DNA from: Candidatus Dormiibacterota bacterium
GTDB lineage: Bacteria; Chloroflexota; Dormibacteria; Aeolococcales; Aeolococcaceae
Assembly (NCBI GenBank): GCA_036833315.1
Contig: DAITPY010000003.1
Coordinates: 2,745-66,744 of the forward strand
DNA length: 64,000 bases
Direction: 5' to 3'
Below the pieces are notes generated by a model, which ran no database searches, was not told the origin of the DNA, and was given only the letters and a program-made list of their open reading frames with translations. A program made the translations under genes and the position numbers. Shown piece by piece: positions 7,819 to 22,956 of the stretch (the first letter of the stretch is position 1; every line of letters starts with the position of its first letter).

Positions 7819-8577
7819 TCAGCCGACCGACTCAAGGACGTCGTCCGGGATCTCGGCGTTGGCGTAGACCTGCTGGACGTCCTCGTGCTCCTCGAGACCG
7901 TCGAGCAGGCGCAGCACCTGGCGTGCCTGGCCGCCGTCGAGCGCGATCGACGTGGTCGGGTTCATGGTCACCTCGGCGGTGTCGATCTTGTAGTTGCGCT
8001 CTTCGAGGGTGCGACGGACCTCCTCGAATCTCGATGGCGCGACCGTGACGACGACCTCGCCTCCGTCGACGCCGACATCGCCGTCATCGCCGACATCCAC
8101 GGCGTCGAGCAGCTCGAGCGCGAGCTCCTCGGGGTCGCGCTTCCCCGCCTCTATCGTGATCACGCCCTGCTGGTTGAACATCCACCCGACGCTGTTCGCC
8201 TCGCCGAGCGCCCCGCCCGATCGGGTGAACGCGTTGCGAATCCCCGCGACCGTGCGGTTGCGATTGTCGGTCAGCGTGTCCACCATCACCGCGACTCCAT
8301 GGGGTCCGTAGCCTTCGTAGCGCACCTCTTCGAGCTGCGCGCCATCCTTGCCGCCGGCGCCGCGCTGGATCGCCCGCTCGATGTTGTCGGCGGGCATGTT
8401 CACCTCGCGGGCCTTCTGGATCGCCAGGCGCAGCCGGAAGTTGCCCTCGACGTCGGGTCCGCCCTCACGAGCGGCGACGGTGAGCTCCCGGGTGACCTTG
8501 GTGAAGGCCTGCCCGCGGCGCGCGTCGACGATTGCCTTCTTGTGCTTGATGCCAGCCCACTTGCTGTGACCGGACAT
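7819..8577 (-). CDS. yebC: YebC/PmpR family DNA-binding transcriptional regulator
   Basis: MSGHSKWAGIKHKKA... 252 aa; GGAGG SD upstream. Confidence 0.9.
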   Translation of the reverse strand: MSGHSKWAGIKHKKAIVDARRGQAFTKVTRELTVAAREGGPDVEGNFRLRLAIQKAREVNMPADNIERAIQRGAGGKDGAQLEEVRYEGYGPHGVAVMVDTLTDNRNRTVAGIRNAFTRSGGALGEANSVGWMFNQQGVITIEAGKRDPEELALELLDAVDVGDDGDVGVDGGEVVVTVAPSRFEEVRRTLEERNYKIDTAEVTMNPTTSIALDGGQARQVLRLLDGLEEHEDVQQVYANAEIPDDVLESVG

Positions 8578-8646
8578 GGATCCTCCGAGACGAACAGGCG
8601 TTCCGATTCTAGCGCAGCCTCGAGCCCAGTCTAGGCCTCGCGCTCC

Positions 8647-9016
8647 TTGTGGTAATCAGCCGACAGGTTTATCGTGGGGGGAAGCATCGATCCATCAGAC
8701 GGAGGTAGCCATTTCAATGATGCGTACCGTCTGGCAGCGTTTCCGGCGCGGCCGAGCGGAGGGTTGAGGCCCGGCTGACGGGCCCCCCAGCTGCACAACT
8801 GTGATGCCCCGTCGAGGTCGCTGGGCAATCGGTGACCCCCGGAAGTCCTGAAGTGGACGAGAGCGCACTGTGCAGGGTCGGGAGTTCGAGACCGGGCCTT
8901 TCCGAACCTGGCACCGGTTGCGGTGCCGCATAAACGCCCGGGAATTTCCTACCGGGCTGCCGTACTAGAAACGGTGTAATCACTGAGGGGCCGGCTCAGT
9001 CCGGCCCCTTTCTCTT
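8647..9016 (+). ncRNA. Candidate structured non-coding RNA of about 330 nt, family unassigned
   Basis: 418-nt gap with no credible ORF. Plus-strand promoter-like TTGTGG(8647-8652)-17 nt-TATCGT(8670-8675), a chain of GC helices, and an intrinsic terminator at 8987-9016. See finding. Confidence 0.3.
8987..9016 (+). terminator. Rho-independent terminator (plus-strand polarity)
   Basis: GGGGCCGG(8987-8994) CTCAGT CCGGCCCC(9001-9008) followed by TTTCTCTT(9009-9016). On the minus strand the same stem is not followed by a U-tract. The mpg stop codon lies in the loop. Confidence 0.6.
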
Positions 9017-9655
9017 GTCTCGCGACGGGGCATCGACGGCGGGTGCTCTGGGCAGCGGCGATGACACCGCAGGGTCTCCCTCCCATGTGAAGCGAAGCAA
9101 CCGATCGGCTGCGAGCCGGACGCCGACCCGAGTGCTGACCGCGATGGGAGGGCGCCCGGCGCCTGGTGCGATATGCAGTCGAGAGCGGGGGTCGAGCAGG
9201 TCGATGCCGTCGTCCGCGCGTGTGATCCCAAGGCCGCGACAGAGGTTGCCTGGACCACGAAGCATCGCAGCCGCCGCGACCCCGGCGCGTCTTGACACCA
9301 CCGTTGTGAAGCCCTCCTCCACCGATGCGGCGCGCAGCAGCACCGCGCCGGCGACGCCGTCGATATCGGTGACCACGTTGGCGCAGTGGTGCATCCCATA
9401 GGTGAAGTAGACGTAGAGATGCGCAGGCGGACCGAACATCACCGCGCATCGAGGCGTCGGCCCTCGGAACGCGTGGGAAGCCGGGTCTGCCAGTCCGAGG
9501 TACGCCTCGGTCTCGACGATGCGCGCGACCACAGCGTCGGGGCTCCCCGCGTCGACCATCAGCGTGCAGCCGACCAGGTCGCGAGCCACCTGCGCCGTCG
9601 GCCGTGCGAACCACTCGCGCGACAGCTCGGCTACTGGCGGATCTCTGCGTCGCAC
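8996..9655 (-). CDS. mpg: DNA-3-methyladenine glycosylase (Mpg/AAG family)
   Basis: IVETEAYLG...DPASHAFRG...YFTYGMHHCANVV motifs. GTG start at 9655 overlaps the pheT end, so the start is uncertain. Confidence 0.85.
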   Translation of the reverse strand: MRRRDPPVAELSREWFARPTAQVARDLVGCTLMVDAGSPDAVVARIVETEAYLGLADPASHAFRGPTPRCAVMFGPPAHLYVYFTYGMHHCANVVTDIDGVAGAVLLRAASVEEGFTTVVSRRAGVAAAAMLRGPGNLCRGLGITRADDGIDLLDPRSRLHIAPGAGRPPIAVSTRVGVRLAADRLLRFTWEGDPAVSSPLPRAPAVDAPSRDKRKGPD

Positions 9656-20832: not shown

Positions 20833-21004
20833 CGCGGCGGGAGCAGCTTCAGCGATTGTCCCGCGCGGGGAACATCCAGAGACGTGCCGTCTGAGAGGCG
20901 ACCGAATCACCCTCACGGCCTGTCCGGTCCCCCGCCGGATATCGCCCGCCATCAGACGAAGAACGCACCAGATGATGCAAGGTGAGCGAACGGGGGGTCG
21001 CCGA

Positions 21005-21343
21005 CTACATCCCCGGCATCGAGAGGACTTCGAGAACAGTGATCGAACTGTCCCCGGGCGTTTTCAGGTGAGGATGATCCTCGACGAGCGTTCTGACAGC
21101 GTCCAGCGACTCCCCCTGAAGGATCGAGAACCCGGTGGTATGCGTGTCGGTGCCGCTCTTTGACCCACCACCCACGGACGCTGAGGCTCCCAGTGGGGAA
21201 CCGAGGTCCACGATGGCATCACCGGTTTTGGCGGCCCAGCGTTGCCAATCCTCCATCCCCGCCTGCATCTGCTCCGGTGTCGACGCGGCCATCATCTCGC
21301 CGGCCGGTGTTGAGGATTTGTAAAGCACCAGGAACCGTTTCAT
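21005..21343 (-). CDS. Hypothetical small protein (possibly YciI/DGPF-like alpha+beta fold)
   Basis: MKRFLVLYKSSTPAGEMMAASTPEQMQAGMEDWQRW... Start at ATG 21343 with GGAGG (21356-21352) 8 nt upstream. The family call is tentative. Confidence 0.5.
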   Translation of the reverse strand: MKRFLVLYKSSTPAGEMMAASTPEQMQAGMEDWQRWAAKTGDAIVDLGSPLGASASVGGGSKSGTDTHTTGFSILQGESLDAVRTLVEDHPHLKTPGDSSITVLEVLSMPGM

Positions 21344-21728
21344 GTGAGCCACCTCCTCGGCGATCGAATTCTCGCGTGAAGAATGTACATCCGCGGGTCA
21401 GCCACCTCGCTCACCGGCCCGGCGGACGACAAGCGTGGATGAGTCGTTGTGCCGCAGTGTGATCGACGTCTCGCCCTTGCACACGCGATCCAGGCGCACG
21501 ACCTCCAATGGGTTGACGGGGTAGCGGGCGAGGGAGCGTGCTACACGAAGTCCCTTGGTTCTCGCCATCTTCAGCAGTATTCGGGATCGCTGAGCTCGCT
21601 GTCCCGGAAACGCTGCCTGACCGCTTTGACCCTAGACGTCTGACTGCGGCGGATGCGTCGGGCAGTGCGGTGCGAGGGGCTTAGCCGACCGCCACCGAGG
21701 CATCCGCCATCACGTTTTGCTGTGACGT

Positions 21729-22523
21729 TTAGCTCCCGAGGGTCTGGATCTGCGACTGGGTGAGGGCGACCCGGAAAATCATCACTTCGTCCAGTTGGCC
21801 CACGAACGCAACGGTCCCGTCGACCCCATCACAAGTGCTCACACCGGCCCGCATCGGCGTTCTTTTCGAGATATCAGCGGTTGTTGCAGTCGTGGTCGTC
21901 GCTTGAAGTTGGCCGTCCACATACAGCGATGCCATTGTTGTCTGCCTAGTGACGGCCACCCTGTGCCACGCTCCGTCGTTGACCGCCGCGGTTGAACCCA
22001 AGTTCATGTAGTCTTGGCCGACCGTATTCTGAGCCTCGAAGCTGACCCGCCCGTTGGGCTGCATTCGGAACCCCCAAAAGCTGGTCCCGTCGGAGTCGCA
22101 TTGTGCTCGCTCCTCCCATATGGCCTGTTCTTGGGTTGCCGCGGTCGTCTTGATAGCGAACGCGAACGTGAAGGCACCGGTACCACGGTTGCCGCCATCC
22201 GTGTTGAATACGACTTGATCCGCCGTTCCGCCAAAACTGAACGCCTGGTCGGTTCCATACATACCCGGACCGAAAGTGACTCCGACGAGTGTTCCGTTAT
22301 CCATGCCCACGGAGTCCTCGGCATTCCCCTCGGCTTGCCACCAATAGGTCGGCGACGGCGGCACCGGAGTGGGTGATGGAGTCGGCACGGGCGTTGCGGT
22401 CGGCGCAGGGGTTGAAGTGACCGTCGGCGCGGGGGTCGGGGTCAGCCTCGGAGCAACTGTCGATCCACATGCTGCGAGGCCAAGAGCGGCGATCGCAATG
22501 CCTATGGTGGTTATGCGTTTCAT
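21729..22523 (-). CDS. LamG/concanavalin-A-like lectin domain lipoprotein
   Basis: Start ATG 22523 with GGAGG SD. Lipobox MKRITTIGIAIAALGLAACGS, Pro/Thr linker, then LamG-type core ...AWHRVAVTRQTTMASLYVDGQL...GQLDEVMIFRVALTQSQIQ. Confidence 0.75.
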   Translation of the reverse strand: MKRITTIGIAIAALGLAACGSTVAPRLTPTPAPTVTSTPAPTATPVPTPSPTPVPPSPTYWWQAEGNAEDSVGMDNGTLVGVTFGPGMYGTDQAFSFGGTADQVVFNTDGGNRGTGAFTFAFAIKTTAATQEQAIWEERAQCDSDGTSFWGFRMQPNGRVSFEAQNTVGQDYMNLGSTAAVNDGAWHRVAVTRQTTMASLYVDGQLQATTTTATTADISKRTPMRAGVSTCDGVDGTVAFVGQLDEVMIFRVALTQSQIQTLGS

Positions 22524-22812
22524 GTCTGCCTCCACCCAGTCAACGGCAACACGGCACAACAGTTACATCCGCGCAACTGCGTCAAACGCTCTCTTCATCC
22601 ATCGTACCAAACATCTGTTCGTCCAGGCACGGAACAATGTGGCGGCGTGATAAGTTTTGGCTATATTCGGCAATAACCCCTCGGCGCGGCGGCCAACCGA
22701 GACGAGGCCAGCGTGGTGCGCTGCAATTCAATACCCCTTCGTCGCCCGGACTGATCAGGGGTTCAACGCAGTCGGCAGGATGCTAGGTCCGGCTGGTTGT
22801 ATTCAAAGCCAA

Positions 22813-22889
22813 TGGTGGGCGCAATAGGGATCGAACCTATGACCTCTGCGATGTCAACGCAGCGCTCGTACCAACTGAGCTATGCGCCC
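22813..22889 (-). tRNA. tRNA-Val (anticodon GAC), CCA encoded
   Basis: Reverse complement is GGGCGCAUAGCUCAGUUGGUACGAGCGCUGCGUUGACAUCGCAGAGGUCAUAGGUUCGAUCCCUAUUGCGCCCACCA. Folds by hand into a cloverleaf: 7-bp acceptor, CUGCG/CGCAG anticodon stem, loop UUGACAU, T-loop UUCGAUC. Confidence 0.95.
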
Positions 22890-22956
22890 CTGGCTCGCAC
22901 CTGGCAAGCGTGAGCGCCGTCGATGATACCAGCGGGTCGGCGCGACTCCCCGACAG

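Follow-up and report, generated by a model that had tools for sequence, protein, structure and literature searches.

What is kept in a large gap of a bacterial gene array? We have analyzed a stretch of 64,000 nucleotides (nt) from Candidatus Dormiibacterota bacterium (contig DAITPY010000003.1, G+C content 68%), called here the window, in which a spacer of 418 nt (8578-8995) separates yebC (7819-8577, minus strand), whose product carries TACO1/YebC domains, from mpg (8996-9655, minus strand), the gene of a 3-methyladenine/methylpurine DNA glycosylase. It is the sole large gap between 3.4 and 13 kb. An earlier note on this DNA had singled out the same spacer, correctly as to its limits, and had taken it for gene-free and for the source of a non-coding RNA. 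Our analysis indicates that the spacer encodes a conserved structured RNA that also contains a very short open reading frame (ORF). We consider it, with moderate confidence, a dual-function-type RNA or the mRNA of a tiny peptide, the translation of which would be coupled to the fold of the RNA. The Dormibacterota are abundant in soils and permafrost and are known from metagenomes only; to our knowledge essentially no regulatory RNAs have been described in them, and our search of the literature on Dormibacterota RNAs turned up nothing specific.

The element is widespread in the phylum. Scanning the GTDB species representatives with YebC gave 80 loci, nearly all labelled Dormibacterota, and homologues were found in 37 of them, besides about 108 metagenome contigs. 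In 17 species with YebC proteins 89-94% identical, the full spacer aligned at 79-87% identity with few indels. A profile search added 14 more distant species (YebC 67-80% identical) and a broader profile six further species of a deeper lineage. The metagenome contigs were retrieved with a DNA pattern derived from the conserved core, which matched 119 stretches, about 108 of them true homologues. This pattern demanded Arg9, Arg12, Ala13 and Glu14 of the encoded peptide, and the unbiased set is that of the 38 sequences derived from synteny or profiles. After removal of near duplicates there were 90 non-redundant homologue sequences. The window has one copy of the RNA gene, and each recovered locus is likewise single copy. 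When 16 species of what we call clade A were compared to the window, the mean identity of the RNA was 81%, while that of the four-fold degenerate sites of yebC was 60%. These values point to clear purifying selection on the RNA, which changes more slowly than neutral sites.

The earlier note had stated that no frame in the spacer gives a credible ORF. This was wrong, since a conserved frame of 15-16 codons (MMRTVWQRFRRGRAEG) is present, with a GGAGG Shine-Dalgarno (SD) sequence at 8701-8705. SD, start and stop codons were found in all of the 32 synteny-derived homologues, with an SD-start spacing of 9-14 nt and with TGA, TAA and TAG all occurring at one position. Fitch parsimony on the tree of these 32 gave 29, 26 and 50 changes at codon positions 1, 2 and 3 (chi-square p = 0.008), and 89 codon changes against 43 amino acid changes. 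Arg9, Arg12, Ala13 and Glu14 never change among them, although their codons vary (CGG/AGG/CGA, CGA/CGG/CGC and GCG/GCC/GCT). Besides, differences in length within the ORF are always of whole codons, without frameshifts, while the untranslated flanks carry single-base indels: clade A has one additional codon at the N-terminus, and the last codon is missing in one locus (L041) and in a deep subfamily. The latter has a peptide of 14 amino acids, M-R-[T/A]-V-W-[S/T]-x-L-R-H-T-R-A-E, with Arg12 encoded by AGG and elsewhere by CGN. It is an unbiased confirmation of the conservation of the peptide, because it was recovered without the search pattern. Altogether there are 59 distinct peptides with the consensus M-R-T-V-[W/F/Y]-[Q/E]-x-[L/F/Y]-R-[H/R/A]-[G/T/S]-R-A-E-x, arginine-rich, hydrophilic, 14-16 amino acids long and without a membrane segment. 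This data indicate that the small ORF evolves as coding, with selection at the amino acid level across Dormibacterota, and its translation is predicted on these grounds. The view of the RNA as non-coding is therefore unsupported, the frame of 14-16 codons being conserved at the peptide level across the phylum. Longer ORFs of the spacer (63, 65, 78 and 89 amino acids) were rejected as genes because they lack the third-position G+C bias seen in real genes and gave no match in Pfam.

The RNA itself is structured. The minimum free energy (MFE) of the plus strand is -161.9 kcal/mol, with z = -2.5 versus shuffles (z = -1.7 for the minus strand). In G+C-rich DNA such a z-score alone is weak evidence for folding above chance, conservation and covariation being stronger. 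We analyzed the folds module by module, with RNAalifold under Python, taking the clade-A consensus from 35 sequences. The 3' module (the last 114 nt of the 90 sequences) is predicted to fold into three hairpins, P4, P5 and P6, and a terminator. In it 97.5% of the cells form standard pairs and at 14 of the 23 pairs both partners have changed, in 104 cells. Of 500 column shuffles, none came up to any of the observed measures, and when the partners were slid by 1-3 columns pairing fell to 35-55%. P4 shows the changes well, with 12 sequences altered on both sides at each of the alignment pairs 24:42 and 26:40 and variants such as GCGUCC/GGACGC and GAGGCA/UGCCUC. In P6, pair 85:97 is A-U in 41 sequences and U-A in 38, and at pair 81:101, 56 sequences have G-C and 32 have G·U, the last valid on the plus strand only. 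P5 has 99.3% of its cells paired and few compensatory changes (ACCGGC/GCCGGU in L041). The terminator has compensatory changes in 6 of 8 pairs, one of them G-C in 71 sequences and A-U in 16. Throughout P4-P6 the sequences of the stems are conserved and those of the loops are not.

Upstream of this module, the long-range helix P2b encloses a central domain, P3, where most of the pairs in 8791-8797:8869-8875 are compensatory in 4-7 clade-A sequences and 8846:8857 in 12. P3 is variable and dispensable, being reduced to 0-20 nt in five short forms (L180, L125, L142, L094 and L155) of about 200-250 nt in total. One metagenome contig (JGI24140J50213_10022065, our L108) has a tandem duplication of about 45 nt inside P3, which may be genuine or may have arisen in the assembly. 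At the 5' end, P1 contains the SD and the start codons, its 3' arm being the codons Thr-Val-Trp. Five of the helices that the earlier note had drawn are kept in the consensus (8696-8702/8727-8733, 8791-8797/8869-8875, 8816-8821/8832-8837, 8910-8915/8922-8927 and 8936-8941/8952-8957). The pairing of 8768-8773 with 8779-8784 can form as a local hairpin, but the consensus pairs 8769-8774 with 8892-8897 instead. The alternative pairing of GCCCGG at 8936-8941 with 8892-8897, which had suggested a switch, was rejected as it is not maintained where the arms covary (L105 and L155).

Several signals agree on the transcribed strand: the promoter, the SD, the T-tract and the G·U pairs. The latter are frequent in the 3' module and in the clade-A fold, and since they would be A·C on the minus strand, they fix the plus strand as that of the RNA. 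The TTGTGG-17-TATCGT promoter had already been recognized; its TTG and TAT.GT are invariant in clade A, distant relatives often have TTGACA/TTGACT-16/17-TAnnnT, and of 89 homologues 86 carry such a pair (TTGnnn-16/17-TAnnnT) at a fixed distance from the SD, the -10 box ending 23-31 nt before it. Transcription would start near 8682. A terminator scan of the locus gave a single terminator-like site, the plus-strand one already proposed (8985-9010 and its T-tract), and a terminator was present in 100 of 109 peptide-matching metagenome loci, the remainder being mostly truncated. Counted from the first base past the -10 box up to the T-tract, the long forms among the homologues span 315-357 nt.

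The genomic contexts vary. In most loci the RNA is divergent from yebC and convergent with mpg. In three (L170, L185 and L159) it lies on the same strand upstream of tyrS-yebC-ruvC, in four (L130, L174, L179 and L180) between unrelated genes, and in two (L091 and L140) there is no yebC upstream. The neighbours replacing yebC or mpg are tyrS, a gene of the geranylgeranyl-reductase family and an FtsX-like permease gene. These variant loci are probably still Dormibacterota, because the neighbour gene in L130 is closest to proteins of Dormibacteria or old 'Chloroflexi' metagenome-assembled genomes (MAGs). As promoter and terminator are kept while the contexts vary, the RNA is neither a yebC leader nor bound to a single downstream gene. 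Apparently the plus strand is transcribed here as a stand-alone RNA of about 335 nt, from a promoter to a terminator of its own. The discrete transcript that had been proposed is thus supported, together with the statements that it is not the yebC leader and that no co-oriented gene follows its terminator, the next gene being the convergent mpg in most loci.

The survey of contexts provided some further observations. In the lineage of L170 the RNA gene is inverted relative to yebC and located some 70-100 nt before tyrS (at about 9103 of the locus in L170). In the deeper Dormibacterota lineage (L043, L047-L049, L051 and L052) the RNA has a version of about 235-250 nt, found 1.6-3.8 kb from yebC, with the 14-residue peptide MR[T/A]VW[S/T]xLRHTRAE and with the order of the GCACC-type and CCGGC-type hairpins apparently swapped. 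Several loci (L010, L031, L052, L055, L065, L086 and those of 'Chloroflexi CF_xx') bear NCBI organism labels that conflict with their Dormibacterota-like YebC and synteny, among them Acidiferrales, Binatia, a Micrarchaeaceae archaeon, Verrucomicrobiia, Sulfotelmatobacter and Eisenbacteria. These labels are probably binning or labelling errors.

The ORF and the fold appear to be coupled physically. In the MFE folds of the segment that runs from the stop codon to P4, the closing helix P2 is present in 88 of the 90 sequences, starting at most 4 nt after the stop codon and with its 3' arm at most 30 nt before P4. Its core GCCCGG/CCGGGC is replaced by covarying arms in other sequences (GCCCAGG/CCUGGGC, GCCCGC/GCGGGC, CGCUCGGA/UCCGAGCG, GCCCC/GGGGC). 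The same 5' arm can form a local hairpin, P2a, of at least 5 bp in 71 of the 80 long forms, and in one lineage (L105) in which this arm has changed, the local and the distal partner have both changed along with it. P2a and P2b may thus represent two alternative states, for which the evidence is limited. Judging from the known size of the ribosomal mRNA channel, the 5' arm of P2 would lie under a ribosome that has reached the stop codon. At the other end of the ORF, the CAGACGG of the Trp-type members pairs with codons 3-5 (CCGUCUG), and the synonymous sites of codons 3 and 4 are nearly fixed; L091 has a matching P1 pair, GUACACG/CGUGUAC. In other clades GGAG pairs with CUUC and CAU with AUG in the 5' region. 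The SD is largely paired in the MFE fold of 74 of the 90 sequences.

From these features we propose the following working. A sigma-70-type promoter would drive a plus-strand transcript of about 335 nt ending at the terminator, and this transcript would be both an mRNA and a conserved structured RNA. The GGAGG near its 5' end would direct translation of the 15-16 codons into the arginine-rich peptide, and the remaining 250 nt or so would fold into the closing helix P2 around the variable P3, the hairpins P4-P6 and the terminator. In Trp-type members the SD and AUG would be held within P1, of which codons 3-5 are the 3' arm. As the 5' arm of P2 begins 1-4 nt past the stop codon and would pair either locally (P2a) or distally (P2b), a terminating ribosome would have to open P2, so that translation and the folded 3' domain would be mutually exclusive. 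We infer from this exclusion that the unit works like a dual-function RNA, with the peptide as one product and the structured 3' part acting as stabiliser, partner or riboregulator. In a more speculative form, which we regard as unlikely, peptide and RNA would be a single functional unit throughout the Dormibacterota, in which the terminating ribosome toggles P2a and P2b and the peptide binds its own 3' hairpins or the ribosome. If true, such a peptide-RNA regulator would be neither a conventional small RNA (sRNA) nor a conventional leader and would form a new class: with the hairpins as target it would form a ribonucleoprotein or an autoregulatory loop, and with the ribosome as target the peptide would be a previously unseen tiny ribosome-associated protein.

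A number of points weigh against the dual-function proposal. Transcription and translation are both deduced from sequence alone. The SD-AUG spacing of 9-14 nt exceeds the optimal one, and the peptide is very short, its matches in NCBIfam and PDB being all at the level of chance (DLW-39, E = 0.012 and below its cut-off; KIF1C, E = 0.57). The invariance of Arg9, Arg12, Ala13 and Glu14 in the metagenome matches was imposed by the search pattern. Part of the nucleotide conservation of the small ORF may come from RNA structure, that is P1 and a predicted helix 8738-8747:8751-8758. Occlusion of the SD by P1 is only suggestive, because the stability of the 5' module is not unusual (mean z = -0.63) and the register of P1 is not common between clades; a P1 test in fixed register on all 90 sequences gave little covariation, with clade-specific 5' folds. 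The P2a/P2b switch leans mainly on L105, the single lineage with three-way covariation. Finally, a dual-function RNA acting by base pairing would here work without a conserved single-stranded seed, none having been seen.

The same data bear on the other explanations. A purely non-coding RNA, a protein sponge or a base-pairing sRNA with an accidental frame in a conserved structured segment, would account for the strong conservation of RNA structure, the overlap of the ORF with P1 and with the predicted internal helix, the paired SD in those 74 of 90 MFE folds and the lack of a protein family match in NCBIfam and PDB. It would not account for SD, start and stop codons retained in every homologue with interchanging stops at one position, the excess of third-position and synonymous changes, the switch of Arg codon family between CGN and AGG, or indels that are of whole codons inside the ORF and of 1 nt in the flanks; we hold it to be quite improbable. 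Another reading, more doubtful still, is a leader-peptide attenuator or cis regulator, in which translation of the ORF picks between helices and controls read-through of the terminator, to give an antisense to mpg-pheST in most genomes or transcription into tyrS-yebC-ruvC in the L170 type. The layout of an ORF with SD, alternative helices (P2a/P2b) and a terminator resembles that of an attenuator, with about 215 nt and four helices between ORF and terminator; in L170, L185 and L159 tyrS follows the element on the same strand, operons of aminoacyl-tRNA synthetases lie nearby, and aromatic residues occupy positions 5 and 8 of the peptide. However, the ORF has no tandem run of regulatory codons, and its residue 5 can be W, F or Y. 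For the 5' arm of the terminator no conserved anti-terminator partner was seen, and P4-P6 stand between the switch region and the terminator. In most loci the gene that follows is convergent, L130, L174, L179 and L180 have other neighbours, only the L170 type has tyrS, and in that type the orientation relative to yebC is inverted.

A partnership between peptide and RNA, or a translation sensor, supposes that the Arg-rich amphipathic peptide binds its own 3' hairpins (as autoregulation or as a peTrpL/rnTrpL-like ribonucleoprotein) or rRNA, or, as a variant, that an arrest peptide stalls the ribosome on the stop codon, so that P2 stays open. The invariant R-x-x-R-A-E segment with the aromatic position 5, the conservation of P4-P6 in their stems rather than in their loops, the stop codon abutting P2, the phylum-wide occurrence with a consensus-like promoter and a single copy per recovered locus, and the precedent of peTrpL are all in favour. 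Yet the idea is entirely inferential: the loops are not conserved, unlike those of boxB-type targets of arginine-rich motifs, and the NCBIfam and PDB searches detected no homology to a ribosomal protein or to an arginine-rich motif peptide. As for arrest, R-A-E is invariant, but variation in the last residue and in the stop codon sets the peptide apart from TnaC/SecM-type motifs. We give this reading the same low standing as the purely non-coding one. A hok-like type I toxin mRNA, stable, folded, with an occluded SD and a toxic small peptide, would fit the SD within a helix, the tiny ORF and the structured mRNA, and the convergent transcript (the 3' end of mpg) could serve as antisense; against this the peptide is hydrophilic, of 14-16 amino acids and without a membrane segment, the gene is syntenic phylum-wide and neither patchy nor multicopy, each recovered locus having one copy, and the antisense overlap is missing in other genomic contexts, which makes it very unlikely. 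The earlier note had also considered an old insertion or mobile-element remnant bracketed by the 7-bp direct repeat GTAATCA (8652-8658 and 8976-8982), with a 5' part of lower G+C. The repeat does exist in the window, but relatives show no conservation of either copy; synteny of the element holds over dozens of species, it is inherited vertically at the same locus and under purifying selection, and the lower G+C coincides with the two promoters. The insertion was rejected, its probability being close to nil. The dual-function-type RNA or tiny-peptide mRNA is thus the reading that we retain, and the coordinates of its predicted parts are collected in Table 1.

Table 1. Predicted features of the yebC-mpg spacer (window positions)
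Feature	Description	Positions	Strand	Basis
yebC promoter-like site	TAGACT-16-TAGAAT, divergent from the RNA promoter next to it	8606..8633	-	consensus scan
RNA promoter	-35 TTGTGG 8647-8652, 17-nt spacer, -10 TATCGT 8670-8675	8647..8675	+	sequence and conservation
Predicted transcript	length about 335 nt, from a predicted 5' end to the T-tract of the terminator	8682..9017	+	
P1 hairpin	8695-8702:8727-8734	8695..8734	+	RNAalifold, invariant in 35 clade-A sequences
Small ORF	ATG 8717 (or ATG 8720) to TGA 8765-8767, peptide M(M)RTVWQRFRRGRAEG	8717..8767	+	comparative
P2a	GGCCCG/CGGGCC, may form locally, starting 1 nt past the stop codon	8768..8784	+	local folding
P2b	long-range closing helix 8769-8774:8892-8897, extended 8761-8767:8899-8903	8761..8903	+	clade-A consensus
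P3 stems	8779-8787:8880-8889; 8791-8799:8867-8875; 8804-8811:8840-8866	8779..8889	+	clade-A consensus
P3 hairpins	8814-8824:8829-8838; 8845-8848:8855-8858	within 8779..8889	+	clade-A consensus
P4 hairpin	GGCACC/GGUGCC, 8910-8916:8921-8927	8910..8927	+	RNAalifold, covariation
P5 hairpin	GCCCGG/CCGGGC, 8936-8941:8952-8957	8936..8957	+	RNAalifold, covariation
P6 hairpin	(U)GCCGU/ACGGU(G), 8958-8963:8971-8976	8958..8976	+	RNAalifold, covariation
Intrinsic terminator	stem 8985-8995/8999-9010, then T-tract	8985..9017	+	terminator scan, covariation

The surroundings of the element have peculiarities of their own. The gene order has pheT upstream of mpg, and ruvC, ruvA and ruvB downstream of yebC. The YebC protein of the window is also present on soil and permafrost metagenome contigs, and its closest named relatives come from Candidatus Dormibacteraeota/Dormibacterota MAGs. 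The minus-strand TAGAAT that had been proposed as the -10 box of yebC is indeed part of a promoter-like site (8633..8606), and both of its hexamers are invariant across 18 species. In the same species the whole of 8578-8634, which comprises the 5' untranslated region of yebC and the two boxes, is near-invariant, above the conservation of the synonymous sites of yebC; this suggests a regulated leader or an operator common to the divergent RNA promoter. On the other side, the mpg stop codon sits inside the loop of the RNA terminator (8996-9016) and the last six codons of mpg (KRKGPD) are read from the 3' arm of the terminator and the T-tract, on the opposite strand. The convergent units overlap by about 20 nt, an overlap conserved in clade A. 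At 9631-9655 the stop of pheT and the predicted start of mpg overlap by 25 nt, which suggests that the pheST operon ends with mpg. The sole Rfam match in the 64-kb window is a tRNA at 22816-22889 (minus strand, 68.7 bits), which falls in a gap of 2.1 kb (20833-22956) left by our crude G+C-based gene caller, a caller that missed real genes.

We compared the spacer with the known RNA families. The check with Rfam covariance models that the earlier note had recommended gave no family: at gathering thresholds Rfam 15 had zero matches in the spacer and zero in 10 diverse homologous loci, and in E-value mode the best match in the spacer was Hrs13, with 26.5 bits versus a gathering score of 52 and mostly over the terminator hairpin. 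No known RNA or protein family was matched in these searches and in those of the peptide. The RNA and its small ORF make up a new, well-supported family that occurs across Dormibacterota. On account of its wide occurrence, its clear purifying selection and its covariation, it could enter the databases as a new RNA family, accompanied by a new family of small proteins. It would be a well-defined addition to the few transcripts that serve both as structured RNA and as the mRNA of a peptide of about 15 residues. Moreover, a stop codon abutting a helix with two alternative partners makes the coupling of translation and folding directly testable in vitro. More generally, structured spacers that look gene-free merit a check for very short conserved ORFs.

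Among the systems already described, some resemble the Dormibacterota RNA in layout only. Transfer-messenger RNA (tmRNA) is also an RNA of about 350 nt with a short internal reading frame and a helix immediately after it. The Dormibacterota RNA differs in having no tRNA-like domain or CCA end, an SD and AUG, and a peptide without a terminal degradation tag. A tmRNA was rejected here, ARAGORN having found no tRNA or tmRNA at 8000-9600, Rfam being negative and the ORF having a GGAGG SD and an ATG. With the mRNAs of type I toxins (hok, tisB) it shares the long folded mRNA, the ribosome-binding site, here possibly occluded, and the tiny ORF, but the peptide is hydrophilic and of 14-16 amino acids, the gene is a core syntenic one and no dedicated antisense sRNA was found. 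The attenuators trpL, pheL and pheM also combine an SD and a short ORF with an intrinsic terminator and with competing helices, the counterpart of which here would be P2a and P2b; in contrast, here there are no tandem codons for the same amino acid and mostly no co-oriented gene of biosynthesis or of an aminoacyl-tRNA synthetase after the terminator.

The closest parallels are with sRNAs that encode peptides. The 14-15-residue peptides peTrpL and SpfP are encoded within the sRNAs rnTrpL and Spot 42 (PMC7968998, PMC12612679). rnTrpL of Sinorhizobium meliloti is derived from an attenuator and encodes a leader peptide of 14 amino acids (PMC7968998, PMC12612679). Its length is about 110-140 nt, it lies upstream of trp genes, and it shows tandem Trp codons together with a classical 1:2/2:3/3:4 attenuator, whereas the Dormibacterota RNA is of about 335 nt, has a 3' domain of 250 nt and shows no regulatory codon run, no conserved downstream gene and no sequence similarity to it. 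Even so, both would be short terminated transcripts in which a structured RNA also serves as mRNA for a peptide of some 14-15 amino acids with a function of its own, and in both the translation of the small ORF would be tied to alternative RNA helices. Other dual-function sRNAs are Spot 42/SpfP (15 amino acids), SR1/SR1P, SgrS/SgrT and VcdRP (PMC12612679, PMC12310071, PMC3526287, PMC8672173). The RNA described here has no homology to them, no Hfq-type seed or conserved single-stranded region was found in it, and it is much larger and more structured than Spot 42. What it has in common with this group is a predicted unit running from its own promoter to its own terminator (the promoter pair in those 86 of 89 homologues, the terminator conserved, the contexts varying), a small ORF and an RNA structure that are both conserved, and a peptide of the size of SpfP.

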